From Leptonemataceae bacterium (lineage in GTDB: Bacteria > Spirochaetota > Leptospiria > Leptospirales > Leptonemataceae): a stretch of 64,000 nucleotides of DNA. The position numbers were made by a program, and so were the translations under genes. Location of the stretch: positions 5,536,001 to 5,600,000 of the forward strand of contig OZ245742.1 in the NCBI GenBank assembly GCA_965227295.1, given 5' to 3'. Below the pieces are notes generated by a model. The model searched no databases, was not told where the DNA came from, and was given only the letters and a program-made list of their open reading frames with translations. Positions 12,358-43,128 of this stretch are shown in pieces (position 1 is the first letter of the stretch; each line of letters opens with the position of its first letter).

Positions 12358-13737
12358 ATGGCCGAAGAACGCGCAAAGACTCAGGTCCTCCAGAAGTACC
12401 ACGATCTGCTCAGCGGCATGGACCCCATGCGGCCCATGGGCAAGGTCGTGCAAATCGCCGGCATGTCTATCATCAGTGACGGGCCGCCGGAGGCGTGCAT
12501 CGGCGATCTCTGTCGCGTGGAACTGGGCCACCGCCGCGGCCGCCCCGCGCCGGATCAGAAAGAGTACCTCGACTGCGAGGTCATCGGCTTCCAGGGCCAT
12601 CGCCTGGTGCTCACGCCCCTCGGCCCCACGGCCGGCGTCTTCCCGGACGCCATGGTCTTCGGCACCGGCCGTCGTCTCACGATCTCCGTCACCGACGATC
12701 TCCTGGGCCGCATCCTGGACGGCCTCGGACGACCACTGGACAATCGCCAGCCCGTCATCTCCACCGACAACCGTTCCCTCGATCGCGATCCGCCGCCGCC
12801 GACCTCCCGCGAACCCATCCGCAATCCCGTGGAAACCGGCGTAAGAGCTATCGATGGTATGTTAACGGTGGGCGCCGGTCAGCGTCTGGGAATCTTTGCC
12901 GGCACCGGCGTCGGTAAGTCGACGTTGCTCGGCATGATTGCGCGTTACACCCGCGCCGACGTGAACGTGATCTGCCTGGTGGGGGAACGCGGTCGTGAAG
13001 TGCGCGAGTTCCTGGAAAACGATCTCGGCCAGGAAGGCCTGAAAAAGAGCGTCGTTTTCGCGGCGACCTCGGATCGCGCGGCCATGGAAAAGGTCTACGC
13101 CGCCGGTTTCGCCACCAGCGTGGCCGAATACTTCCGCGATCAGGGCCTGCACGTTAACTTATACATGGATTCCCTTACGCGTTATTGCATGGCGCTGCGG
13201 GAGATCGGACTGGCCGCCGGCGATCCCGTGGGCATCGGCGGTTATCCGCCCGGTGTCTGGTATCGTTTGTCGCGCCTGGTGGAACGCGCCGGCGCGAATC
13301 AGCACGGGAGCATCACCGGTTTTTATACGGTCCTGGTCGAAGCCGACGACCTCAACGATCCCGTCGCCGACAACGCCCGCGGGATTCTGGACGGCCACTT
13401 TGTGTTGTCGCGGCGCCTGGCCCAGCGCGGTCACTATCCTTCGATTGAAATCACCGAATCGATTTCCCGGGTCATGGACAAGGTTATTTCCAGCGATCAT
13501 TTAACCGACGCCCAACGCCTGCGCACGATTCTTTCGGCCTATCGCGAGAACGAGGAGCTGATCAATCTCGGCGCTTACGCCCGCGGCTCCAACCCGGACG
13601 TGGACGAGGCCCTGGAAAAGATGGATCGCATCAATCGCTTCTTGCGCCAGGGCGTCGAAGAGAGCACGCGTTTGCCGAATACCGTGAAAGCGCTGCACGA
13701 TCTCGCCGCGGGCCGCGAACAGGAGGAGTTTTACTGA
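12358..13737 (+). CDS. fliI: Flagellar export ATPase FliI
   Basis: GQRLGIFAGTGVGKSTLLGMIA, GERGREVREF, MDSLTR, LDGHFVLSRRLA..GHYP; followed by fliJ. Confidence 0.95.
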   Translation: MAEERAKTQVLQKYHDLLSGMDPMRPMGKVVQIAGMSIISDGPPEACIGDLCRVELGHRRGRPAPDQKEYLDCEVIGFQGHRLVLTPLGPTAGVFPDAMVFGTGRRLTISVTDDLLGRILDGLGRPLDNRQPVISTDNRSLDRDPPPPTSREPIRNPVETGVRAIDGMLTVGAGQRLGIFAGTGVGKSTLLGMIARYTRADVNVICLVGERGREVREFLENDLGQEGLKKSVVFAATSDRAAMEKVYAAGFATSVAEYFRDQGLHVNLYMDSLTRYCMALREIGLAAGDPVGIGGYPPGVWYRLSRLVERAGANQHGSITGFYTVLVEADDLNDPVADNARGILDGHFVLSRRLAQRGHYPSIEITESISRVMDKVISSDHLTDAQRLRTILSAYRENEELINLGAYARGSNPDVDEALEKMDRINRFLRQGVEESTRLPNTVKALHDLAAGREQEEFY

Positions 13738-15909: not shown

Positions 15910-16644
15910 CTAAGCCGCAAAGATTCGCCGGCAAACTTCCCGCACGGCCGCATGCATGTCGTCCCAGCCCTGTTCACTCTGAATGTCGATGCCGCCGAAG
16001 AATCGGATCTTCCGACTGCGGATCAAAAGATAGAAGAGCGAACCCGCGAGCATCGGCGCAACGACCAGGCCGACTCGCGTCGCCTCGTCCTTTGAGTCCG
16101 GCTTCGCGTCGTCGACAATGACCCGCATGAGTTCGAGTCCGCGGCGTTCGCGCACCTCTTCGAGGATGGCCGTCAGTTCGTTGCGTTCCACCGTTTCCCG
16201 CGCCATGATTTCCACGGTCTCCGGACGCCGGCGCAACGCCTCGGTAAGATTGTAGAGCACGGTCGCGACGCGATCAGCGAGCGGCAGGGCCTGGATCGAT
16301 TCGAGCAGATCTTGCGGCAAAGACTCGATCGTTTCGTATGTTCGATCATCCGATGCCGGCAAGCCGGCGACGGCCTCGTAAAGATCGGGCCAGAAATCGA
16401 CACCGGCGGCGTACTCCTGGATTACACCCGAGAGTTCGCCGAAGTAGCGATAGATCAGCGTCTTGTTGACCCCGGCCTCCCGGGCCAGGGCATTGACACC
16501 CGGTCGGGCAAAACCGGAGCGGACGAACAATTTTCGAAGGGCCGCGAGAATTTTACGACGGGTCCCTTCACGATCGCGCTGCTTCGGTTCCGTTTTCCGA
16601 TTTGTCGCTTTCCGTTTCTTTGCTGCTTTTCGTTTCTTTGCCAT
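15910..16644 (-). CDS. TetR/AcrR family regulator
   Basis: RDREGTRRKILAA...GVNALAREAGVNKTLIYRYFG HTH. Confidence 0.9.
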   Translation of the reverse strand: MAKKRKAAKKRKATNRKTEPKQRDREGTRRKILAALRKLFVRSGFARPGVNALAREAGVNKTLIYRYFGELSGVIQEYAAGVDFWPDLYEAVAGLPASDDRTYETIESLPQDLLESIQALPLADRVATVLYNLTEALRRRPETVEIMARETVERNELTAILEEVRERRGLELMRVIVDDAKPDSKDEATRVGLVVAPMLAGSLFYLLIRSRKIRFFGGIDIQSEQGWDDMHAAVREVCRRIFAA

Positions 16645-16663: not shown

Positions 16664-17839
16664 TCAAGATACGAGCATGTCCCGCACTGACCTGCGCGGG
16701 GCCTTGAAGCTTTCGCTTCCGCGCCCGAGCCGCACGATCATCTGCACGCGACCCCGGATTCCGAGCTGTGCATTGAATTCCTTTTGCAGATCGGCCATCT
16801 CCGGGTATTCCTGTAGAACCTGGCTCAGGGGATGCATGCGCAAACCCACGGCGGTCACCGCCAGTTGCAGACGCGCGTAGTCCCGCCCGGTCTTGACCCA
16901 GTCCGTTTGTGTATTGTTTTGCGTTTCGAGATATGCGAAGGCCTTTGAGCTCTCCACGGTCTCCTTCCACGACGTGAGATACATCTGCTTGTTCGATTCG
17001 TCGTGCCACTCCTCTTTGCTGCGACCCACAAAGGTCTGCGCCAGGATTCGTTTGAACGTACTCATGCCGGCCGTGCGCCAGGAAATCCCATCGCGCTTCT
17101 CGTAGATTTCCTCGTCGTTGTAGCGAAACCAGATGCGACTTTCTTCGTAGGTATCATGCGTAAGAACTTCAATCTGCATCCCTTTATCGAAGATGTCGTG
17201 CAGACTCTTGAGTTCAGCCGGCGTATTCACGGTCTTCAGTTGCGCATGCGTCGGGCCCATGAGTTGCTCGATGCGTGCGAACTCCGCATCCGTAACGTGC
17301 GGTCCGTCATACGGGGTGCGGTCCGTCAGACGCCGTGAGATCTGTTTGTACAGCGGGTCTTTGTCTGTACTGTTCCCGGAAACCAACCGAATGCGCGCCA
17401 CGGGCTTACGTCCGACGTCCCGCAGTGGGTACTCACCCTCGGGGAAATAAGTGACCTCGGCCGTGCTGCCCATCTCTCGCGCGCCGATCGCCAGGTGTTC
17501 GAGGAAGGTCCCGCAGCCGATGTGGATCTGCCGCGCGGGGGGATCCGTTTCGGGCAACAGCCGGTTCTCATCGACGTAAAGCAGTGCTTCAGTATCGCCG
17601 CGCAGTCGAAACTTCCAGGACTGCGTGTTGTGCGGATTCGGCGCGGTAATGCCGCAGTTGATGGCTCGCAGGATGGGCTCCTGCATTCCACTGGCAGCGG
17701 CGTTTTCGAGGGGATCCGCTGCGCCCGAACCAGCCAGACGTCCCCGTCCCGTTGCGCATCCCCCCAGGAAGGCCGGCATGGTGAGCATGGCGCCCGTTGC
17801 CATGGCTCCTTTCAGAAAGGTCTTTCGATTGTATTGCAT
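16664..17839 (-). CDS. Acg-like FMN-binding nitroreductase family protein with Tat-like signal
   Basis: APNPHNTQSWKF, DPPARQIHIGCG, R.TDR..Y, HPLSQVLQE, VRLG; NRKTFLK Tat-like start after GGAGG RBS. Confidence 0.85.
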   Translation of the reverse strand: MQYNRKTFLKGAMATGAMLTMPAFLGGCATGRGRLAGSGAADPLENAAASGMQEPILRAINCGITAPNPHNTQSWKFRLRGDTEALLYVDENRLLPETDPPARQIHIGCGTFLEHLAIGAREMGSTAEVTYFPEGEYPLRDVGRKPVARIRLVSGNSTDKDPLYKQISRRLTDRTPYDGPHVTDAEFARIEQLMGPTHAQLKTVNTPAELKSLHDIFDKGMQIEVLTHDTYEESRIWFRYNDEEIYEKRDGISWRTAGMSTFKRILAQTFVGRSKEEWHDESNKQMYLTSWKETVESSKAFAYLETQNNTQTDWVKTGRDYARLQLAVTAVGLRMHPLSQVLQEYPEMADLQKEFNAQLGIRGRVQMIVRLGRGSESFKAPRRSVRDMLVS

Positions 17840-17871
17840 CTTGTTCCTCCCGGCCCGGCAAACGCGGACCA

Positions 17872-17914
17872 TTTGTATCCGAATGGTTACTTATTGTAAC
17901 CATATGGATACAAA
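17872..17914. promoter_or_regulatory. Large inverted repeat, candidate TetR operator
   Basis: tttgtatccgaatggttac-ttatt-gtaaccatatggatacaaa (17/19 complementary) upstream of the nitroreductase-tetR operon. Confidence 0.7.
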
Positions 17915-18058
17915 ACAAGCCTTTTTTTTTCGGGGGAGGACCGAGACCACAGCATAAGCAATGCCTTCGCATTATTGACAGGCGTTCCGGACCGCGGTTG
18001 GCGGCAAATATGATCCACGCACGCGCGAACATTTTCGAGGATAAGCCAGGCGAACCGA

Positions 18059-18679
18059 TCAGACTTCCCGCAATCGCCGCAACACACCGCGCACCAGAAA
18101 CAACGCCGCGCCACAGTACAATACCAGTCCCAATGTGCGCACCGGAATTGCCGCGCCGTTGCCGAACAACACCACGCCGACGACCCACAGCCAAACCGCC
18201 GCACGCGGCAGCGCCGTGCGTTTCGTAAGATCCAACGCCAGCAACACGAATCCGATCGCGAGCAACGCACCGGACGTCGCCAGCGGTACCATCACACGCA
18301 AATCACCGAACACCAGCGCGCCGTCGAGCGACACCAGCTCCGGAGCATGCGCGGCCGCCACCGGCCACAAGAACGTTTCGTAGTATTGAATTGCGGCGAA
18401 GAGCACCACACCTATCTCCGCCACGATGAGTCCCGCAAAACCGATCGAGCGCGCGGCTTCGACGCGAAACAGAAACAGCGCGGGCAACGACACGGCCCAC
18501 AGCAAACACGCCACGAGACCGATGACGTTGACGGGCAACCATAACTCGTGGCGCACGAGATCCTCAAACGGGCCCGTCACCGGCAACACCAGGCCGACGG
18601 CGAACCACCAGACGATCAGAAGTAACGTAGAGATGAGATACAGGATGGTTAAGATACGGAGGTATGACTCTGTGCGCAT
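18059..18679 (-). CDS. Hypothetical integral membrane protein
   Basis: About 5-6 hydrophobic segments; start chosen at MRTESYL. Confidence 0.75.
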   Translation of the reverse strand: MRTESYLRILTILYLISTLLLIVWWFAVGLVLPVTGPFEDLVRHELWLPVNVIGLVACLLWAVSLPALFLFRVEAARSIGFAGLIVAEIGVVLFAAIQYYETFLWPVAAAHAPELVSLDGALVFGDLRVMVPLATSGALLAIGFVLLALDLTKRTALPRAAVWLWVVGVVLFGNGAAIPVRTLGLVLYCGAALFLVRGVLRRLREV

Positions 18680-18879
18680 GGGATCGATATCACAGAATGC
18701 GCCGGAGTACACAAGTTGAAATTGCGGCCAACGTCTTCGAGAGAAACGCCACCATAGATGAGTCGCACAACCAGCGCCCGGGTCGAAGTTAGCGTTCATA
18801 GCAAAACGACTATCCACAACATTTCTGAAGTCGGACAGGCCCCGGCTTATCCCTTAATCTCGCTGAAGCGAGATTAAGG

Positions 18880-19122
18880 CTCCCGCTCAGCCGCAGCCAA
18901 AGAATCCCCTTCAAAGTTTGGCGACTTACTCTTTTTTCTACGGCAAACGCAACGAACCACAGCTCTTGAACTACCGGAAACGCTCGGACAGTTCGCGCAC
19001 GCCCCGAATCGTGATGTAAGTTGCGGCCAGTTTGCATTAAGGCTTTTTTGGGTACGGCTGGTTCCAGCAGATGAACGGAGGTCATGCCGGGGAATATGGT
19101 AAGGCGCACCGGAACGGCGTCT
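18880..19122. repeat. Non-coding direct repeat, copy 1 (candidate structured RNA)
   Basis: Aligns end to end with 19208-19452, including identical 43-, 24- and 23-nt blocks. Confidence 0.9.
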
Positions 19123-19207
19123 CCGTCGTAAGAAACGTTCCGATCGCTGAGTCACAAACCGACGTCCGGGTCGAGGCGGACAATCTTTGCAAAACGAATC
19201 ACCACAA

Positions 19208-19452
19208 CTCCCGCTCAGCCGTAGCCAAATGAATCCCTTCACCATTGCGCAACTCACCTTGTGTGTCTCACGGCAAATGCCGCGAACTACAGCTCTTGAA
19301 CTACCGGAAACGTTTTATTCATTCGCGGACGCCTCGAATCGTGATGTAAGTTGCGGCCAGTTTGCATTAAGGCTTTTATGGTCACAACCGGTTCCAGCTG
19401 ACGAACGGAGGTTGTGCCGGGGAATGTACTAAGGCGCACCGGAACGGCGTCT
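19208..19452. repeat. Non-coding direct repeat, copy 2 (candidate structured RNA)
   Basis: Aligns with 18880-19122; start-to-start spacing 328 nt. Confidence 0.9.
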
Positions 19453-19517
19453 TCACCCCGGAAAAACGACACTTTCGCTTGCAGAACCATCGGCCTCGGG
19501 CAATCTGCGAGTTAGCA

Positions 19518-20159
19518 ATGCCTCCCGATACATCCGAACGCTTTCGGGTCCAGGGGCCCTCCCGCGCCCTGCGGCGCTATGTGTGGTTCATGTTGCCCCT
19601 GGTATGGGGCCTCTTCAGTAGCCTGGGTCTGCTGGATTTCGATCTTTCGCGCAAACAGATCCCGAAGGCTCCCCTTCCCGGGGCACCGGGGTGGAACCCG
19701 TGCGCAAACATTGATTGGGAGAGAACGGCGCAGGATTATCAGCTCGGCGTGAGCCCCCTCGAAGATTCCGTGATCTATCGCTATCGTGTCGGCCGTCTGA
19801 AAGATCTTCATTTCCGCGCTGCGTACGTATTCAAGAGCCGCAGGGATCGCCCGCTACAGTTCATCCAGGTTCGTTTTCCCGTGAAACTCATCGAGCCGTC
19901 GTTCCTCGATGCACTCAGCGAGCGTAAGGCCGTGGCCCGGCGCAGAATTCAGGCTGAACTCGACGAAGCCATGGAGGCCCCCGCCACAACCGGGCGGCGA
20001 CAGGGTGATCCTGCCTGGGATCGCGTAACACGCACCCGCGTCAGCGCCTGGGGCGATGCAAGCACGCGATGTTTCCTTCTGAACCGGGACGAAGTGCTCC
20101 CGAAACTGAAATCCACGAATAGCGACGACATCTATCTCCAGGTCGAACCGCGCCATTGA
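19518..20159 (+). CDS. Hypothetical protein with N-terminal TM segment
   Basis: Open frame fills the gap before aroC; hydrophobic YVWFMLPLVWGLFSSLGLL. Confidence 0.55.
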   Translation: MPPDTSERFRVQGPSRALRRYVWFMLPLVWGLFSSLGLLDFDLSRKQIPKAPLPGAPGWNPCANIDWERTAQDYQLGVSPLEDSVIYRYRVGRLKDLHFRAAYVFKSRRDRPLQFIQVRFPVKLIEPSFLDALSERKAVARRRIQAELDEAMEAPATTGRRQGDPAWDRVTRTRVSAWGDASTRCFLLNRDEVLPKLKSTNSDDIYLQVEPRH

Positions 20160-20198
20160 TTGACTTGACCCCCGTCCCCGTCGTCCCACACTGAACCC

Positions 20199-21464
20199 GT
20201 GTCGAGCACCACGGGACAGCTCTATCGCATCACAACGTTCGGCGAGTCGCACGGCCCGGGCGTCGGCTGCGTCATTGACGGAGTGCCCGCCGGCGTGCCG
20301 ATTGATCCGGCCGTCATCCAGCATCAGCTCACGCGACGCCGGCCCGGGCAGAGCCGGTTGACCACGCCCCGCAAAGAAGCCGACGAACTCGAGATCTTGA
20401 GCGGCGTCTACAACGGCCGCTCCCTCGGCACACCCATCGCCGTCCTCGTACGCAACACGAACAACAAGGGCAAAGACTACGATCGCTGGGCGCGGGTCTA
20501 CCGCCCGTCCCACGCCGACTATACCTATCACATCAAACACGGCTATCGCACGCCCCACGGCGGCGGACGCGCGTCCGTGCGCGAGACCATCGGACGCGTC
20601 GCGGCCGGAGCGCTGGCCGAACAAATCTTGCGCAACGATCTCGGCATCGAAATCCTCGCCTGGGTCGAGAGTATCGCCGGGGTCAGCACACCGATTTACC
20701 GTCAGTTGTTAAAGGATCCTGGCACCGCGCAGTACGACGACTTCCTGCAACGCGAGGCCGTCGACGCGTCCCTGGTACGCTGTCCCGATCCCGCCGTAAG
20801 CGATCACATGATTCAAATCATAGACGAGGCGCGCAAAGAAGGCAACAGCCTGGGCGGCACGATCGCTTTGCTCGTCCGCAATGTACCGCCGGGCCTCGGC
20901 GAGCCGGTCTTCGATAAGCTCGAGGCGGAACTGGGCAAGGCCTGCCTCAGCATCTCGGCGTGCAAGGGCTTCGAAAGCGGCAGCGGCTTCGACGGAACGC
21001 GCATGTTCGGCAGCGACCACAACGATCTCTTCTACAACACAAACGATCCCGACGCCGGCGCGGCGGAGACGATCGCCGACGGCAGCCCGGTGAACTACCA
21101 CACCGTGCCGGACCTGCGCACGCATACGAATCGCTCCGGCGGCATCCAGGGCGGCATCACCAACGGCATGCCCGTCCTGCTGCGCCTGGCCTTCAAGCCC
21201 GTGGCGACCATTCAGCAATTCCAGGAAACCGTAAATGAATTCGGCGAAACCGAGGAGCTCCGGCCCGGCGGACGCCACGATCCGTGCGTGCTGCCCCGGG
21301 CCGTGCCCATCGTGGAAACCGTCGTAGCCAACGTACTCATGGACATGTACCTGCGCCAGCGCGCGGCGAACCCGAACTGGTGGGAACGCTACGCCCGCCC
21401 GGAAGCCCGGCAGCAGCTCGATCATCTCGCCGACCGGCCGGTGCCGGATGGAGTGCAATCGTGA
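20199..21464 (+). CDS. aroC: Chorismate synthase
   Basis: TTFGESHG, RRRPGQS, RPSHAD, GGGRASVRET, GGIQGGITNG, GRHDPCVLPRA. Confidence 0.97.
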   Translation: MSSTTGQLYRITTFGESHGPGVGCVIDGVPAGVPIDPAVIQHQLTRRRPGQSRLTTPRKEADELEILSGVYNGRSLGTPIAVLVRNTNNKGKDYDRWARVYRPSHADYTYHIKHGYRTPHGGGRASVRETIGRVAAGALAEQILRNDLGIEILAWVESIAGVSTPIYRQLLKDPGTAQYDDFLQREAVDASLVRCPDPAVSDHMIQIIDEARKEGNSLGGTIALLVRNVPPGLGEPVFDKLEAELGKACLSISACKGFESGSGFDGTRMFGSDHNDLFYNTNDPDAGAAETIADGSPVNYHTVPDLRTHTNRSGGIQGGITNGMPVLLRLAFKPVATIQQFQETVNEFGETEELRPGGRHDPCVLPRAVPIVETVVANVLMDMYLRQRAANPNWWERYARPEARQQLDHLADRPVPDGVQS

Positions 21465-33510: not shown

Positions 33511-33591
33511 TTCCCACTGCTCGTAATTCCAATCATTTAGACTCCTCGCAGCGATTCTGTGCCAGGGTCCCGCTCACACAGGGACAGAATC

Positions 33592-36500
33592 ATGCAGAAC
33601 AAGAGATTTCACAACCTACAAACCTTCACTAAAAGCAAGCTTGCGGTCCTCGTCGCCGCGCTCCTCGCGTTTTTCGCCGCGACGCCGGCGCTCCAGAGCA
33701 GCGGCGGCGGGAACGCCGGGGGAATGCTGGAAGGTCAGTTCGACCCCGGCCCCGCCGGCGGAGCGGGATTTCAGATCCCCGTCTACATGCCGCCCGGCGT
33801 GCGGGACTTTCAACCGCGGCTGAAGCTGCAATACTCCAGCATCAACCAGGATCGCGGCATGCTCGGCGTGGGCTGGGACCTGAGCGGGCTGTCGCAGATC
33901 GAACGCTGCGGCAAACGCCGCCACCTCGACGGACACAACGCTCCGGTACGCTACAACAAAGGCGACCGTCTCTGCCTGGACGGCAGCCGTCTGGTCGGCC
34001 GAAACGGCAACGACAACAACGCCTACTGGAACGGCCCGTTCAGCAAAGAAGTCGAGGACTGGAACGAGATTCGCCTGCACGGCAATTGTGGCAACGGCCC
34101 CTGTCGTTTCACGGTGCACGAGACCAACGGTTCGATGCGCACGTACGGCGGCGCGGGCCATGCTCGCATTTACGCGCGCAACAACACGGCCGTGCGGGTC
34201 TGGCTGCTGAGCGAGATGCGCGACCCGAACGGCAATCGCATTGAATTCAAGTACCGCAGCGGCTTCGGCGCCGGCACCGCGTACATCGATCGCATCGAGT
34301 ACGAGGGTCGTGGCGCGCGCTTCTTCTACGATCGCATCGACGACGCCCGAAACATCAACTACAGCTATGACGGCACCGGTCGTACCGCGCAGCGCAATCG
34401 CCTGAAGCGCATTGAGGTCTTCACCGCCGCCGGCGTCTTTCAAAGCTATCGTTTCTCGTACGAAAGAAGTCAGCTCACGAAGCGCAGCCGGCTGCGCCGC
34501 ATTGATCGCTGTGATTCCAACAACCGCTGCCTCGATCCCATGGAGATGTCGTACAACGACGCATCGATGAACGGCGAGTTCCGCATCGTCAGTCCGGGCG
34601 GTCACGTTTACCAGGACTGGCTGCGCTACGATCCCGGTGTAAACATCATTACCGGCGACTTCAACGGCGACGGCAAACAGGACTTCATCCGCCAGGAGAA
34701 AGGCGACCGGGGCAAGGACCGCAACAATACGTTCAACGTCTACCTGTCCCGGGGCGACGGAAAATTCAACATCGTCACGCCGGGCGTAAACGGCCGTCAG
34801 GACGATCCGTTCCAACACCATCTGCGCTTCGATCCGGGTGCGAACATCATTACCGGCGACTACAACGGCGACGGCAAAACCGACTTCATCCGCCAGGAAA
34901 AGAATGACTGGGACAACAACGACAAGTGGACCTTCCGTGTATACTTTTCCCGCGGCAACGGACACTTCAACGTCGTCACGCCGAATGGCCACGCCTACCA
35001 ACACAACCTGCGCGCGGACGACGGCGCCATCATCATCCCCGGCGACTACAACGGCGACGGCAAGACGGACTTCATCCGCCAGGAACGCGGGGGCTGGGAC
35101 GACGACACCACGGGCACCTTCGAGGTCTACTTCTCCCGCGGCAACGGCTACTTTAACATTGTCCGCCCCAACGGCCACGTTTACCAGGACTGGCTGCGCT
35201 ACGACCCGGGCGCAAACATTATCCCGGGCGACTTTAACGGCGACGGCCGCACGGACTTCCTGCGCCAGGAACGCGGCGACCGGGACAACGACGCGAACAA
35301 CACCTTCAATGTATACCTGTCTCGCGGCAACGGTTACTTCGACATCGTCACTCCCGGCGGCAGCGCCTTCCAGTCCAACCTCCGTTCGGACAACGGCGTA
35401 AACATCATCCCGGGTGACTTTAACGGCGACGGCAAGACCGACTTCATCCGCCAGGAAAAAAAGGACTGGGACCACGATACGAACAATACGTTCAACGTCT
35501 ACTTCTCCCGGGGCAACGGCCACTTCGACGTCACGACTCCCTCCGGCGGCGTATACCAGGACTGGCTGCGCGCGGACCCGGGCGCCAACATCATTCCGCT
35601 GGACTACAACGGCGACGGCAAGACCGACTTCATTCGCCAGGAAAAAGGCGGCCGGGACGACGACACGAACAACAGCTTCAACGTCTACGTCTCCCGCGGT
35701 GACGGCACCTTCGACATCCGGACGCCCGACGGCTACCTCTATCAGAGCTACCTGCGCGCCGATCCCGGAGCCCGGCTGATTCCCGGCGACTTCGACGGCG
35801 ACGGCCGGGACGACTTCATCCGCCAGGAGAAAGGCGGCTGGGACGACGATACGCATCTGTCTTTCGGCATCTACTTCGCCGGCGCACACCGGGCCCAGGC
35901 GGCGGATACTCTAAAACGCATCGTCCACGGTCCGGTGGATCATCGTTTCACGTATCGCCGCCTGACCGAGTACAACGCCAACGGCGGCATCAACTTACCG
36001 GGCGGCCATCGCGGTTTCCTCGCGCCGTTCACCGTGCTTAAGTCTTACCAGAGAATTGTTAAGACCCAGGCGGGCAAACAAACCATCAATCGTCATTACA
36101 CGTATAAGGGCGCGGCGCTGCATCCCGGCGGCCGGGGTTTCGTGGGCTTTCGCCAGATGCATGTCCGCGGGCCGGAGGAAAACTTTCGCACGGAAAACAT
36201 CTTGCGGGTGGACTTCCCCTTCACCGGCCAGACCGAACGCAAGACCACGTTCAACGCCAACCGCTCACGCGTGCTCAACGTCGAGAAATTCCAGTACAAC
36301 AAGGCGAACGGCCTCGCCCCGCAAAGCCGTATCGCCCAACTCACGCGCAAAACTTCCGAGGCGCGCGAAAGCTCCGGCAGTCGCACGGCCGTGCAGAACA
36401 TCCAATACGACGCCGGCAATCCGGCGCTGGTCAAACAAACCGTCGGTTCGAGCTCCATGGCCACGTGCACGGAGTACTCCGGCGGACAGATCGCGGCCAT

Positions 36501-39500
36501 CATTCGCGCCGACAGTTGCGAGTACTCCGGCGGCAGTTGCAGTTGCTCCGGTGTGCTTACGGAGGAACGTTTCGAGCGCGATACGTCCGGCAACGTAAAG
36601 GAGCGCCGCAACTTCGATAGCTCTCGCAACGCCTGGCTGGTGGAGCGCTACGATTACGACTCCCGCGGCAATCGCATTCGCACGTATCTGCCCACGGGGG
36701 CCGTGCAAACGGTGCGTTTCGATTCCACGTACCGTACGTATCCGGTGGAGATCACCACGAACGCGAACGGTCAGAGTTACACGGAGACCCTGGAGCACGA
36801 TCCGCGGAACGGTCGCCCGCTGCGCGAAACCGATCCCAACGGCATCACCGCCCGCAACGCCTACGACGACTTCGGCCGACTGACCGAGGCCTACCATACC
36901 TCGCCGTCCGGCGACGAAGAACTCGTCGGCGCGCACCAGTACACCCGCCAGGGCAATCTCTACGTGCGCACCACGCACCTGCTCCATACCTGGGATAGCG
37001 ATCATCGCACGGTGAACGTCCTGGCCGTGGACGGCCTGGGTCGCGAGATTCGCCGGGAAGAGGGATCGTCCGCACAACGGGTCATCGTGCAGACGGAGTA
37101 CGATGTACGCGGCAGCATCAAACGTCGCTCCGAGGGCCATCTCTCCGGCGAGAGTCCGCAGTGGACGCAGTACACACGTGACGTGCGCGGTCGTCCGGTA
37201 CGCGTCACTCAACCGGGCGGCGCCGTCACCAACGTAAGTTACGCCTACGGCGGCGGCGATTGCGCCGCGGACCAACTGCGCGTCACCGCGGTAACCTCCG
37301 TGAATCGCGGCGCGGGTCGCCACGTTACGCGCTGCCGCAACGCTTCGAACGAAACGGAACGCCTGGTCCTGCGCGATCCGGTGAGCGGGGCGAGCACGAC
37401 CCACGAGTACGACTTCGACGCCCTCGGTCGCATGACCGCCGCGCGGGACGGTCAATCGGCCACGAACATCAGCGTCGATTCCCTCGGCCGGCGCGTGCGC
37501 ATTGAAAGCACGGAGCGCGGCAGCATCGAATACATCTACGACGACCGGGGCCAGCTCGCCCTGGAACGCCGCAACGGTGAGGACACCTACTTCACGTACG
37601 ACGCGCTCAATCGCGTTACGGAGATCGTTTATCCGGACGGCAGTCGCGCGGTCTATGAGTATGATGATACGACCTTCGCGAATACCATCGGCCGCATCAG
37701 CACGGCCGCGATGGTTTCCGGCGCGGGCAAAGAAATCGCCCGACGGGAGTACTCCTACGGCGTGAGCGGTCGCGCGGAAGTGATCATCTCGCACTTCCCC
37801 GATCTCGCCGAACCGCAGGTCATCGAGTACCGCACCAACGTCATGGGCGACACCACCTCGGTGCATTACCCGAGCGGACGGATCGCGTGTTACGAGTACA
37901 ATGATCGCGGACTGCTCGCGCGCATCGACGTCGCCTCCGGCACCTGCGCGGATCCGAACGCGGAGACCTTCGTCCGTTACAAACAGTACACGGCCAACAA
38001 TCAACCCGGGCTTGTGGAGTACGGCAACGGCGTCGTCACGGGCTTCGAGTACGACGGCAACCACCGCGTGCGCGGCATCCACACCACGGACGCCGAAGAC
38101 GTTACGATCCTGGAACACGATTACACCTGGACCTCGCTGAACGAGGTGGAGTCCATCACCGACGACCTGGGCGATGACGACGCGCAGTACACCTACAACG
38201 GCCTGGGCTATCTCACCCGCGCCGTCGGCCCGTACGGCGACCTGAGCTACGAGTACAACGCCGACGGCAACCTCATTCGCAAAGATGGACTGAATGTAAG
38301 TTACGAGGGCAGTCGCCCGGAGGCCGCCGGCGACGGCCGCACCCTGGAGTACGACGCCCACGGCAACATCACGCACCGCGTCAAGAACGGCGAAACCTTT
38401 GCCTATGAGTACAACGGCCGCCGGAAGATTCAGCGCGTGTTGCGCAACGGTAAGATCGCCGGCCTCTACGAGTACGACGCGGCCGGCGACCGCGTTACGA
38501 AGATAGACGGCAGCGGCAACAAGACGATCTACGTCAGCCCCGAGTACGAGATCACCGACTTTGCGGGCGACCGCAATCTGCGGACCGAGTACATCAGCAC
38601 GCCGACGGGCCGCGTGGCGGCCATCTCCAACGAAGAAGGCATTCGCTACGCGATGCACAAGTCCGTGCAGCACGGCCTCCAGGCCCGGGCCTATAACACC
38701 GGTTCGGTGACGGGTCTGGCCGGCTTCCTGAATCACACCATCATGTCGTACGCCTACGACCCCGTTACGATCCGGCACGGCATCATCGCCTTCTGGGCCC
38801 TGGCCGGAGCCGCGGCCCTGGCCATGTTCGTGTGGATGCTCCGGCGTCCGGCCCGCTCGGCCTACCGTCGCCGGCGGATGCGTCTCGCCTACCCGGCTCC
38901 CTTCGTCGCGGTGACGATGCTCGCCATGAGCATTTCCTGCGGCGGCGGAGATTCCGGTATGCTGGTTCCGCCGGGCGGACTGAATCCGGGCTTCCTCTTT
39001 CAGAACGAGTCCTCCTCCGGGGAGAACAGTCCCGAGGCCTACGGTTACGCCGAGGAAGGGACCTACTACTTCCAGTACAACCAGGTGGGTTCCACGATCC
39101 TGGTAACGGACGAGGCCGGCACGCCGGTCGGCCGCACGGTGTACAAACCCTACGGCGAACTCTACGAGGATGCGAGCGACGGACGCGGTTACTTCCGGAG
39201 CAAGTTCAACGATCGTGAATGGGATCGCGACGCGGAGATGTACTACTTCAACGCGCGCTACTACGATCCGGCGACCGGTCGTTTCCTGCGCGCCGACGAT
39301 TTTCTCTTCGGCACGAGCTCGGACAACGCCGCGCAGATGAACCGCTACGCGTTCTCCGCGAACAACCCGATCACCTACTCGGACCCGGGCGGTAACTTCG
39401 CCTTCATTCCGATCCTCATCGCCATCGGCATCGGGGCGGCGGCCGGGGCCGCGGCCGGGGCGATCGCCTACGGCATCTCGGTGGCGATGAACGGCGGCAC

Positions 39501-40170
39501 CTTCAATGTCGGTGACTTCTTTAAGTATATCGCCATCGGCGCCTTCGCCGGCGCTCTGGGCGGCGGAGTCGGACACGTTCTCACAGCGGCCTTCGGCGCG
39601 TCCATGGCGGCCACCGGCGCCGTGGTGGGTGCCACCGTCGGCACCGCCGTGGATACGATGGTCTTTTCGATCCTCACGCAGGTGGCCGATACCGGCCGCG
39701 TCGACTGGCGCAGCGTGGGCATCGATATCGGCTTCGGCCTGGTCGGTGCCGGGGCCGGGGCGGCACTGGGCAAAATGGGCAGCGCCGCTTCGAAATCGAT
39801 CTACCGCGGCGGCCAGAAGGCCGTGAGCAAAATCTCATCGAAAATGAGCCGCAGCGCTCCGACCGCGAGCCGAACCGCCGGCCGTGCCATGGGAAAAACC
39901 GGACGCGTCGTGGGCCCGGACGGTGAGGTCCTGACCCGCATGGCGGGCGTGCGGCAGCACATCGGCCGGGTCATTGGACCGGACGGACAGATCATGCTGC
40001 GCCAGCCCGGCACGCGCAATCTGCCGATCCACCGGAGCTTCAGTGACCAGATCCAGGCGGCTCTGCCCAGCGCCGGCCCCATCGCCGCGAAGGTCGGCCG
40101 GGCCGTCCTCCGCAGCGCGGGCGCGGCCGGCATCGGCACCACCGGCGGCAACGGAACGAACGAGGACTGA
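33592..40170 (+). CDS. Large RHS/YD-repeat protein with SpvB-like N-terminus, FG-GAP repeats, RHS core and Gly/Ala-rich C-terminus
   Basis: IPVYMPPG...LQYSS...G.LGVGW.LSGLS.IERC; 7x GD(F/Y)NGDG.TDF; GRGFVGF; YD repeats; YYFNARYYDP.TGRF; NNPITYSDPGG. Confidence 0.92.
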   Translation: MQNKRFHNLQTFTKSKLAVLVAALLAFFAATPALQSSGGGNAGGMLEGQFDPGPAGGAGFQIPVYMPPGVRDFQPRLKLQYSSINQDRGMLGVGWDLSGLSQIERCGKRRHLDGHNAPVRYNKGDRLCLDGSRLVGRNGNDNNAYWNGPFSKEVEDWNEIRLHGNCGNGPCRFTVHETNGSMRTYGGAGHARIYARNNTAVRVWLLSEMRDPNGNRIEFKYRSGFGAGTAYIDRIEYEGRGARFFYDRIDDARNINYSYDGTGRTAQRNRLKRIEVFTAAGVFQSYRFSYERSQLTKRSRLRRIDRCDSNNRCLDPMEMSYNDASMNGEFRIVSPGGHVYQDWLRYDPGVNIITGDFNGDGKQDFIRQEKGDRGKDRNNTFNVYLSRGDGKFNIVTPGVNGRQDDPFQHHLRFDPGANIITGDYNGDGKTDFIRQEKNDWDNNDKWTFRVYFSRGNGHFNVVTPNGHAYQHNLRADDGAIIIPGDYNGDGKTDFIRQERGGWDDDTTGTFEVYFSRGNGYFNIVRPNGHVYQDWLRYDPGANIIPGDFNGDGRTDFLRQERGDRDNDANNTFNVYLSRGNGYFDIVTPGGSAFQSNLRSDNGVNIIPGDFNGDGKTDFIRQEKKDWDHDTNNTFNVYFSRGNGHFDVTTPSGGVYQDWLRADPGANIIPLDYNGDGKTDFIRQEKGGRDDDTNNSFNVYVSRGDGTFDIRTPDGYLYQSYLRADPGARLIPGDFDGDGRDDFIRQEKGGWDDDTHLSFGIYFAGAHRAQAADTLKRIVHGPVDHRFTYRRLTEYNANGGINLPGGHRGFLAPFTVLKSYQRIVKTQAGKQTINRHYTYKGAALHPGGRGFVGFRQMHVRGPEENFRTENILRVDFPFTGQTERKTTFNANRSRVLNVEKFQYNKANGLAPQSRIAQLTRKTSEARESSGSRTAVQNIQYDAGNPALVKQTVGSSSMATCTEYSGGQIAAIIRADSCEYSGGSCSCSGVLTEERFERDTSGNVKERRNFDSSRNAWLVERYDYDSRGNRIRTYLPTGAVQTVRFDSTYRTYPVEITTNANGQSYTETLEHDPRNGRPLRETDPNGITARNAYDDFGRLTEAYHTSPSGDEELVGAHQYTRQGNLYVRTTHLLHTWDSDHRTVNVLAVDGLGREIRREEGSSAQRVIVQTEYDVRGSIKRRSEGHLSGESPQWTQYTRDVRGRPVRVTQPGGAVTNVSYAYGGGDCAADQLRVTAVTSVNRGAGRHVTRCRNASNETERLVLRDPVSGASTTHEYDFDALGRMTAARDGQSATNISVDSLGRRVRIESTERGSIEYIYDDRGQLALERRNGEDTYFTYDALNRVTEIVYPDGSRAVYEYDDTTFANTIGRISTAAMVSGAGKEIARREYSYGVSGRAEVIISHFPDLAEPQVIEYRTNVMGDTTSVHYPSGRIACYEYNDRGLLARIDVASGTCADPNAETFVRYKQYTANNQPGLVEYGNGVVTGFEYDGNHRVRGIHTTDAEDVTILEHDYTWTSLNEVESITDDLGDDDAQYTYNGLGYLTRAVGPYGDLSYEYNADGNLIRKDGLNVSYEGSRPEAAGDGRTLEYDAHGNITHRVKNGETFAYEYNGRRKIQRVLRNGKIAGLYEYDAAGDRVTKIDGSGNKTIYVSPEYEITDFAGDRNLRTEYISTPTGRVAAISNEEGIRYAMHKSVQHGLQARAYNTGSVTGLAGFLNHTIMSYAYDPVTIRHGIIAFWALAGAAALAMFVWMLRRPARSAYRRRRMRLAYPAPFVAVTMLAMSISCGGGDSGMLVPPGGLNPGFLFQNESSSGENSPEAYGYAEEGTYYFQYNQVGSTILVTDEAGTPVGRTVYKPYGELYEDASDGRGYFRSKFNDREWDRDAEMYYFNARYYDPATGRFLRADDFLFGTSSDNAAQMNRYAFSANNPITYSDPGGNFAFIPILIAIGIGAAAGAAAGAIAYGISVAMNGGTFNVGDFFKYIAIGAFAGALGGGVGHVLTAAFGASMAATGAVVGATVGTAVDTMVFSILTQVADTGRVDWRSVGIDIGFGLVGAGAGAALGKMGSAASKSIYRGGQKAVSKISSKMSRSAPTASRTAGRAMGKTGRVVGPDGEVLTRMAGVRQHIGRVIGPDGQIMLRQPGTRNLPIHRSFSDQIQAALPSAGPIAAKVGRAVLRSAGAAGIGTTGGNGTNED
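34582..35880 (+). repeat. Seven tandem ~186-bp (62-aa) FG-GAP-like coding repeats
   Basis: GD.NGDG.TDFIRQE recurs at 186-nt spacing, e.g. 35041 and 35227; first unit slightly longer. Confidence 0.9.
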
Positions 40171-42339: not shown

Positions 42340-43128
42340 ATGCACGGAATCCTGCGCACCCTTCTTAAAGTTCTTTTAATTTCAGTTAGTGTCCCGCTCC
42401 TGGCCTGCGGGGGCTACGAGGAGCATCCCTCGGGCCTCAAGTTCCGCGACGAGGTCGTGGGCAGCGGCGAATCGCCCGAGGCCGGCGACTACGTTACCGT
42501 CCACTACACCGGCCGCCTCTACGACAGCGGGGCGAAGTTCGACTCCTCCCTGGATCGCGACCGGCCGTTTACGTTTCAGATCGGCCGGGGCCAGGTCATC
42601 CAGGGCTGGGACATCGGCGTCATGAGCATGAAAAAAGGCGGCAAGCGCATCCTGGTCATTCCGCCGGACCTGGGCTACGGCGAACGCGGGGCCGGGCCGC
42701 GCATCCCGCCGAACTCCACGCTCAAGTTCGACGTGGAACTGCTCGACTTCCGCAAACCGCCGGAACCCTGGCCGACGCCGGAAACGGCGGCACGGCGCGC
42801 CGCCGGCGGTCTTCAGTACTACGTATTATCCGAAGGCGAAGGCGAACGCCCGCAGGCCGGTCAAACCGTGGCGGTCCACTACTCCGGGTACCTGGAGGAC
42901 GGCACGCTCTTCGACAGCTCACGGACCCGGGGCGAACCCATTGAGTTCGTGCTCGGTCAGGGCCAGGTCATCAAGGGCTGGGACGCCGGCATCGCCCTCA
43001 TGAAACCGGGCGCGAAGTACAAGCTGGTCATCCCGCCGAATCTGGGCTACGGCGATCAGGGCGCCGGTCGGGTCATTCCGCCGAACGCAACGCTCATCTT
43101 CGATGTCGAGTTGGTGGAAGTAAAATAA
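42340..43128 (+). CDS. Lipoprotein with two FKBP-type peptidyl-prolyl isomerase domains
   Basis: LLA-C; two copies of VHY.G.L..G..FDSS...GQVI.GWD.G...IPP.LGYG...IPPN.TL.FDVEL. Confidence 0.95.

Follow-up and report, generated by a model that had tools for sequence, protein, structure and literature searches.

An Apparently Non-Coding, Multicopy Mosaic Repeat Between Two Divergent Genes of a Leptonemataceae Bacterium

The Repeat Array and Its Units

The window considered here is a 64,000-nucleotide (nt) stretch of the genome of a Leptonemataceae bacterium (assembly GCA_965227295.1, contig OZ245742.1, positions 5,536,001 to 5,600,000 of the forward strand). Between two divergent genes, the left one on the minus strand and the right one on the plus strand, it carries a short head-to-tail array of a repeat, made of two full units and a fragment (Table 1). 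The repeat belongs to a family that is multicopy, non-coding and mosaic, and that was found only in this genome among the collections searched. A first-pass annotation, made from the sequence alone, had described two copies at 18880-19122 and 19208-19452, sharing exact blocks of 43, 24 and 23 nt and lying in an AT-richer gap between divergent genes. Both the positions and the blocks were reproduced, each block occurring twice in the window and in none of 100 shuffles, and the gap is indeed poorer in GC than its surroundings (0.51-0.55 against 0.60-0.67 in the flanks).

A repeat scan paired 18992-19122 with 19322-19452 (131 nt, 89% identical), 18880-18929 with 19208-19257 (76%) and 18940-18982 with 19270-19312 (91%), at a spacing of 328-330 nt in every case. 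The differences between the two copies are clustered (11 pairs of adjacent differences, permutation p = 0.0001), and a permutation p of 0.012 was obtained for an identical run as long as 43 nt. The unit had been estimated at about 245 nt, a figure that holds for its body but not for its period, the true unit being about 330 nt long and consisting of a 243-nt body plus an 85-nt spacer. The spacer is conserved throughout the family, since related open reading frames (ORFs) read through it (VVDFRFAK..DPDVGLRLSYRSVSYGEDAVPVR) and over the next junction (KGLIWLRLFG/VV, the slash marking the junction), and the two full units meet directly at 19207/19208, uninterrupted. The array also contains a third, partial unit that had gone unnoticed: its segment aligns with 19118-19208 at a local score of 42 (15.2 +/- 2.0 in shuffles), its portion 18769-18820 resembles 19157-19208 at 71% in the repeat scan, and it adjoins the start region of the left-hand gene. 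An extension of the array into the start of the right gene was considered and discarded, the DNA to the right of 19452 scoring 15 against the spacer where the shuffle mean is 16.2. The array does not appear in the output of Tandem Repeats Finder.

A perfect hairpin of 12 base pairs adjoining the first copy, also part of the first-pass description, was found again, and it ends the 59-nt insertion at the unit junction. The underlying palindrome (18852-18879) is perfect, with 13-nt arms and a 2-nt centre that fold into a 12-bp stem with a 4-nt loop (-18.6 kcal/mol, z = -5.1), and no T-run adjoining it was seen by eye on either strand. It occurs once in the window, and its half-site has no copies above chance; this, together with a better palindrome at 17872-17915 upstream of an Acg/TetR gene pair, speaks against its being a TetR operator. 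By eye, the 8-mer TCGGACAG was seen both in the insertion (18831-18838) and in a variable block of copy 1 (18984-18991), a coincidence that may be due to chance.

Table 1. Coordinates of the repeat array, the ORFs called over it and the flanking genes (positions in the window).
Feature	Coordinates	Strand	Basis or remark
Left flanking gene, membrane protein of unknown family	18059-18680	-	weak ABC2_membrane_5 match, E 0.0047; no NCBIfam family
Partial unit ("copy 0"): final body bases (cgtct) and spacer-like segment	18732-18820		local alignment
Spurious 99-aa ORF over unit 1; handle to other copies	18810-19109	-	no Pfam family; pN/pS 0.75
59-nt insertion at spacer/body junction: 31 unique nt, then palindrome	18821-18879		no counterpart at junction 19207/19208
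Body of unit 1 (copy 1 of the first-pass annotation)	18880-19122		repeat scan, exact blocks
24-nt exact block	18959-18982/19289-19312		difference list
43-nt block identical between units	19005-19047, twin 19335-19377		exact-match search and difference list
Hairpin previously called co-varying	19053-19086, twin 19383-19416	+	same shape predicted in both copies
23-nt exact block	19100-19122/19430-19452		difference list
Spacer of unit 1, inside the ~330-nt period	19123-19207		kept in other genomic copies
Body of unit 2 (copy 2 of the first-pass annotation); array end	19208-19452		repeat scan, exact blocks
Spurious 67-aa ORF over unit 2, same frame as the 99-aa ORF	19287-19490	-	no Pfam family
Right flanking gene, 213-aa protein of unknown family (P0016)	19518-20159	+	no Pfam or NCBIfam family

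Other Copies and Database Searches

The ORF called on the minus strand over unit 1 gave access to the rest of the family. Used as a query, its 99-aa translation retrieved five annotated proteins at 65-75% identity among nine candidates, and a profile of seven minus-strand translations then recovered 15 annotated ORFs of 48-106 aa among 7103 candidates; these translated searches covered 5.8 billion proteins, and an exhaustive HMMER search was run over 1.84 billion representatives. All 15 ORFs sit on a single contig of 5,938,550 bp, and the self-match of the right-flank protein P0016 is recorded on a contig of exactly that length. We infer that they are other copies of the repeat in the window's own chromosome, which together with the two window copies gives at least 17 copies in one genome. 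Six of the 16 related ORFs cross a unit junction (reading KGLIWLRLFG/VV..., or MATAKRELW in another frame), so that units are arranged head to tail at other loci too. Since the identity of a copy to its nearest relative is only 72-89% at the amino acid level, no recent burst of copying appears to have occurred.

Outside that one contig, no homologue of the repeat translation was found in the 5.8 billion proteins. The HMMER search added a 238-aa protein (P0018) and three long repeat proteins (P0019-P0021), the latter being dropped as chance matches that were weak, spread over multiple stretches and without resemblance by eye. Residues 1-43 of P0018 correspond to the minus-frame translation of the repeat and are followed by unrelated sequence of no known family, so that annotation has probably placed its start codon within a repeat copy lying upstream of a real gene. 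At the nucleotide level, an 18-mer taken from the 43-nt block revealed no relative among 185,579 species genomes, a collection that does not include the window's own genome: it matched 18 loci where about 17 were expected by chance (2 x 596e9 / 4^18), and blastn of the region against these gave 19-22-nt seed matches in three (L004, L009 and L013), the remaining 15 loci yielding no match. The 18-mer is too strict a pattern, because other copies vary inside the 43-nt block, at a few codons when amino acids are used as a proxy (Q/Y/N and N/H/Y/D).

The region had no blastn match (distant mode) in the plasmid and phage collections, the kinds of sequence against which the first-pass annotation had proposed searching the variable blocks. 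Rfam 15 gave no match at E<=10 in 18000-20500 on both strands and none at gathering score over the whole window, and no tRNAs were found in the window. No publication on the repeat family was found, a literature search on the repeat sequence itself not having been made.

Coding Potential

The first-pass annotation had judged the units not to be protein-coding, and this judgement stands. The Nei-Gojobori ratio of nonsynonymous to synonymous differences per site (pN/pS) between the window copies ranges from 0.65 to 1.18 over all six frames, with a value of 0.75 for the frame in which the ORFs are annotated. The 16 related ORFs begin at many different starts, end at more than 10 different stop positions and switch frame among themselves (MATAKRELW..., MLSADAESRRF... 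and ...TSVVAWNQLYP, the last leaving the frame inside the hairpin loop), and two of them (P0010 and P0011) contain internal duplications or deletions. The plus strand carries 3, 1 and 2 stops in its three frames, in both copies and within conserved blocks, and it is because of these conserved stops that ORFs were called on the minus strand only. Two plus-strand ORFs (33/34 aa ending in SRTPRIVM, and one beginning MPGN.. after GGAGG) were judged to be chance occurrences, as they lack a usable Shine-Dalgarno spacing and pN/pS is 1.18 in the frame of the first.

The minus-frame translation has no Pfam or PDB relative, its AlphaFold model has a mean confidence (pLDDT) of 38, and its Atlas recognition score of 1024 is below 2300 and of the size usual for shuffled sequences. 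A protein family would be marked by constant ORF boundaries, by purifying selection and by homologues elsewhere, none of which was observed for the repeat. As judged from these sequence comparisons, the units are non-coding for protein, and the "hypothetical proteins" annotated over the other copies look like mis-called ORFs. The first-pass annotation had named decay from a protein gene as a refuting condition, and on this the translated searches are ambiguous: they do return annotated proteins, but these look like spurious ORFs over other copies and not like a parent gene. At least 15 "hypothetical proteins" in the public annotation of this genome look like artefacts of one repeat family, and at least one gene start (that of P0018) was seemingly called inside a copy.

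Block Mosaicism and the Nature of the Family

The segments that differ between the two window copies were compared across 18 copies, with amino acid strings standing in for DNA. A 9-nt block falls into two classes, (I/T)(T/V)R in three copies and (T/M)N(K/Q) in four, while the loop block reads VHL in four copies and ARQ in seven, and the left arm of the hairpin AVP in seven and VVT in three, with single-step variants of the loop states and other variants of the arm. These states are reshuffled. VHL is paired with ITR/TVR in three copies and with TNK in one, ARQ occurs with TNK/TNQ in two, ARL stands with an IT- block in P0008, and all four combinations of M or T in the right arm with AVP or VVT in the left arm were seen. 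Two or three recurring states combined in this manner fit recombination or gene conversion among copies, and not guide segments. The same process, acting on copies of two old variants, would account for the presence in neighbouring units of perfectly identical blocks beside fully divergent ones.

The repeat is probably a lineage-specific family of about 330-bp non-coding DNA, both interspersed and tandem, with at least 17 copies in a 5.94-Mb chromosome that are often in tandem and located in intergenic DNA near gene starts. In such a family, arrays would grow and shrink through unequal crossing-over between units, block variants would be reshuffled by recombination or gene conversion among the dispersed copies, and the whole would behave as repeated DNA, probably selfish or structural. 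This agrees with the fallback proposal of the first-pass annotation, a non-autonomous repeated element, which fits the data better than the guide-RNA idea that it had put first. The family would then illustrate how a moderately old, recombination-prone, array-forming chromosomal repeat can, through its dimorphic blocks, mimic the layout of guide RNAs, and it cautions that a "constant scaffold plus variable windows" is not safely deduced from two adjacent copies.

Several observations weigh against regarding the family as repeated DNA of this kind. The tie of the 15 ORFs to the window's genome rests on the matching figure of 5,938,550 bp, without an accession, and the family-wide statements rest on amino acid proxies of one strand. 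No signature of mobilisation was detected (neither a transposase in the scanned ORFs of the window, nor terminal inverted repeats, nor a target duplication), "selfish" being in that sense an inferred attribute. Both window copies are predicted to form the same two stems, of which one shows a compensatory change, and G-U pairs maintain the plus-strand hairpin. Lastly, the same blocks (AVPVR, TS, LEP, TGR.LHHDS and FPVVQEL in the minus-frame proxy) are kept in copies that are otherwise 20-40% diverged. Bacteria usually delete useless DNA, and a constraint on the conserved blocks at the nucleic acid level is therefore plausible.

Alternative Explanations

The persistence of the same blocks in diverged copies is the reason for which an RNA-level function of the repeat is given some credit, although such a function seems doubtful. 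In its most direct form it would make the units structured non-coding RNA genes of about 250-330 nt, for instance tandem regulatory small RNAs like NsiR1, read from the plus strand, with the conserved blocks as scaffold and the dimorphic ones as specificity or helix variants, an interpretation that we regard as unlikely. Blockwise conservation throughout the family and the lack of a coding frame agree with it, and so does the hairpin that the first-pass annotation had called co-varying. Between 19053-19059/19080-19086 and 19383-19389/19410-19416 the pairs differ by a double change from G-C to A-U and by three wobble changes, which keep the plus-strand pairing in both copies, although the seventh position of copy 1 (19055/19084) is an unpaired C-A mismatch. 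Within the window the hairpin is as first described, but its pairing does not seem to extend to the whole family, as the arms are concordant in six and discordant in three of the nine copies that are informative for both (amino acid proxies, third codon positions being unseen). A second pairing from the same description, gc(g/a)act(t/c)ac with gtaagttgc, was recovered as a 9-bp closing stem (gcgacttac/gtaagttgc) predicted in both copies, preserved on the plus strand save for one C-A in copy 2.

Folding statistics give less encouragement. The first-pass annotation had concluded that selection acts on RNA or single-stranded DNA structure, and folding lends this little support: neither strand of a whole unit yields a fold more stable than those of dinucleotide shuffles (minimum free energy z of +1.21, +0.48, +0.18 and +0.19 for both copies and strands), and domains score -0.1 to -1.2 on the plus strand. 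The hairpin domain reaches z of -0.84 and -1.16 in the two copies on the plus strand, and on the minus strand it forms in copy 2 only (z -2.9), while either strand is predicted to form the 9-bp closing stem, at z from -0.96 to +0.30. Applied to the two copies together, RNAalifold gave -45.15 kcal/mol with 1 compensatory pair for the plus strand and -59.1 kcal/mol with 5 for the minus strand, several of the latter in a poorly aligned tail, so that the better score belongs to the minus strand and the choice of strand is equivocal. Support for RNA structure is hence weak. Nor do expression signals favour RNA genes. No sigma-70-like promoter was found at the array (0 sites, with a consensus that may not be the host's), terminator-like sites number 2 against 1.4 expected, one of them lying at the unit junction on the minus strand (19225-19201), and the T-run that follows the 43-nt block varies from copy to copy (KK, IQ, IF, TK). 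Frequent indels and internal rearrangements, and the blank result from Rfam, also argue against structured RNA genes.

A bolder version would see in the family an orphan set of at least 17 modular genes for non-coding RNAs, each about 250-330 nt long and restricted to one lineage, whose dimorphic blocks switch between helices and whose partner protein would be encoded elsewhere. The variable block 19052-19059 can indeed pair either locally, in the hairpin 19053-19086, or, on the minus strand, at long range with 18888-18899, a pairing in which each of the five one-sided changes can be accommodated by wobble. We consider this scenario quite unlikely. Were the conserved blocks under selection at the RNA level, the family would represent a new lineage-specific class of RNA; the evidence presented here does not show such selection.

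It is improbable that the units serve as cis-acting modules placed upstream of genes (promoters, operators, leaders or protein-binding arrays), active as double-stranded DNA or as the 5' leader of the minus-strand gene. Their location would suit such a role, since the array fills a divergent intergenic region with its fragment next to the start of the left gene, and P0018 reveals another copy directly upstream of, and co-oriented with, an unrelated ORF; the motif ACCGGAA, read by eye, is present twice per unit. However, information on orientation comes from two loci only, truncated and internally rearranged copies are common, a tandem 330-nt unit far exceeds known operators in length, and no sigma-70-like promoter was recognised.

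The leading proposal of the first-pass annotation, that the units specify guide-type RNAs in the style of bridge RNAs or omega-RNAs, here serving an RNA-guided recombinase or nuclease whose gene would lie elsewhere in the genome, is very improbable. In its favour are the multiple copies and a scaffold that stays constant while the variable blocks are clustered, and the search for an enzyme covered the ORFs of the window alone, so that a partner could be encoded elsewhere in the 5.94 Mb. Nevertheless, the variable blocks exist in the two or three recurring, mixed states described above and are not specific to each copy. In line with a remark of the annotation itself, no partner enzyme was found in the window (no transposase, recombinase, integrase, IS110, TnpB or IscB domain in the 56 scanned ORFs outside the repeat). 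Neither Rfam nor the phage and plasmid collections returned a match, and the array does not lie beside a recombinase gene, unlike bridge RNAs, which are encoded in the non-coding end adjoining theirs (PMC11208160).

There is equally little to recommend a minus-strand family of small proteins of about 70-105 aa (M(I/V)RFAK...FPVVQEL), a few of them intact and the rest pseudogenes: although such ORFs were annotated 15 times, three (P0001, P0003 and P0004) have no interruption between RFAK/RFVK and QEL, copy 2 has a 67-aa ATG-to-stop ORF and its stop position is common to P0001, P0002 and P0003, neither window copy is open over the whole stretch and no more than 3 of the 16 related ORFs are, pN/pS is no lower in that frame than in the others, conserved plus-strand stops explain the strand bias, the structural and recognition scores and the Pfam/PDB searches were all negative, and no homologue was found outside the genome in either protein collection bar the start-extension artefact.

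Flanking Genes and Other Features of the Window

The longest ORF of the left flanking gene extends to 18817, into the repeat fragment, but a start at the ATG at 18680 appears likelier. On the other side, P0016 has one homologue at 86% (P0017). The window is otherwise ordinary chromosome, with genes for FliI/FliJ/FlbB, PTS enzyme I, chorismate synthase, IGPS, PolA, FeoB, GroES/EL and a giant RHS-type protein, and a domain scan that took in four ORFs inside the repeat in addition to the 56 outside it detected no transposase, recombinase, integrase, reverse transcriptase, TnpB/IscB or IS110-type domain.

Other features of the window were noted in passing. The long palindrome at 17872-17915 (TTGTATCC..ATGGTTAC-TTAT-TGTAACCAT..GGATACAA) is directly upstream of a gene for an Acg-family flavin mononucleotide oxidoreductase (16664-17872, minus strand), which is followed after 19 nt by a gene for a TetR regulator (15910-16644, minus strand), and it looks like the operator of that regulator. 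An inverted repeat of 25 nt (12238-12262/12323-12347, 92% complementary, arms 60 nt apart) is found just upstream of the FliI ATPase gene (12358-13737). After fliI/fliJ, the ORF 15088-15810 matches the NCBIfam model "periplasmic-type flagellar collar protein FlbB" at 143.6 bits (cut-off 110), which hints at a spirochaete-like flagellum. The product of the RHS-type gene (33559-40170) is 2203 aa long and combines SpvB, FG-GAP and RHS/YD-repeat domains with an RHS-associated core, and at 34570-35853 the gene includes tandem DNA repeats of 186 nt that stay in frame. A gene for an FKBP-type isomerase (42340-43128) has an internal direct repeat (42538-42746/42910-43118, 209 nt, 70%) consistent with two FKBP-like stretches.

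Comparison with Known Systems

Two known arrangements can be set aside. In a template/variable repeat pair of a diversity-generating retroelement the differences would be limited to the adenines of one copy, near a reverse transcriptase gene, whereas here they span all base types, and no reverse transcriptase domain is present in the scanned ORFs. As for an integron attC array or a CALIN array, in which an imperfect palindrome with R''/R' core sites (RYYYAAC ... GTTRRRY) would mark every unit boundary, the junction ..CCACAAC/CTCCCGC.. fits neither core by eye, a formal attC model search not being part of this comparison, and the scanned ORFs include no integrase.

The resemblance to the bridge RNA of IS110 elements is superficial. 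That RNA, about 177 nt in length, is encoded in the non-coding end beside the gene of its recombinase, and two of its loops covary with the target and donor DNA (PMC11208160). It shares with the repeat a constant scaffold and short variable segments; the repeat differs in having no recombinase nearby, blocks that are dimorphic in the amino acid proxies, which argues against programmable guides, and no match to an RNA family. The setting of TnpB/IscB omega-RNAs, which overlap or adjoin a tnpB/iscB gene and the right end of IS200/IS605, was not encountered either, as the scanned ORFs contain no TnpB, IscB or Y1 transposase domain and there was no hit in Rfam, which holds HEARO/omega-type models.

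Among tandem repeats, the NsiR1 arrays of cyanobacteria consist of short units, each with its own promoter and terminator. Both they and the present repeat are direct tandem repeats in an intergenic region, each unit potentially giving one RNA, but here no promoter-like site was recognised with a sigma-70 consensus that may not be the host's, terminator-like sites were no better than chance, a unit is about five times as long, and copies are spread over the genome. Mycobacterial MIRUs and other minisatellites form tandem intergenic units at many loci of one genome, with copy numbers that change by slippage or unequal exchange. The repeat resembles them in having tandem intergenic units at many loci of one genome, but MIRUs measure 46-101 bp and lie within operons, with small overlapping ORFs, whereas the unit here is about 330 bp long and is placed between divergent genes.

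Repeats of the MITE and REP/BIME/ERIC types are lineage-specific, multicopy, non-coding and intergenic, and are often mis-annotated as small hypothetical proteins, all of which applies to the present family. MITEs are defined by terminal inverted repeats together with target-site duplications, whereas a REP is a palindrome only 20-40 nt long. The copies described here differ in being head to tail and 10-30% diverged, with no near-identical recent copies. MITE-like ends are also absent: in an inverted-repeat scan (seed 6) no pair connected the two ends of a unit, and the longest one was internal (18888-18907/19041-19060), and the only edge motif shared by the units is CGTCT.

Of the known bacterial non-coding repeat families, with which this one is filed, the nearest in behaviour are mosaic arrays of intergenic repeats like the NIMEs of Neisseria. 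NIME arrays are non-coding intergenic repeats, multicopy and mosaic, with a variable number of units, thought to be both substrates and products of recombination, in which RS elements of 50-150 bp are bracketed by 20-bp dRS3 inverted repeats (ATTCCC-N8-GGGAAT) (PMC1797815). Bracketing inverted repeats of this type are absent here, as the units abut at 19207/19208 and the sole palindrome (18852-18879) occurs once. Compared with NIMEs, the array in the window differs in its units of about 330 bp placed directly head to tail, in its host lineage and in showing no sequence similarity, and is alike in forming multicopy, mosaic, non-coding arrays of variable unit number in intergenic DNA near genes.

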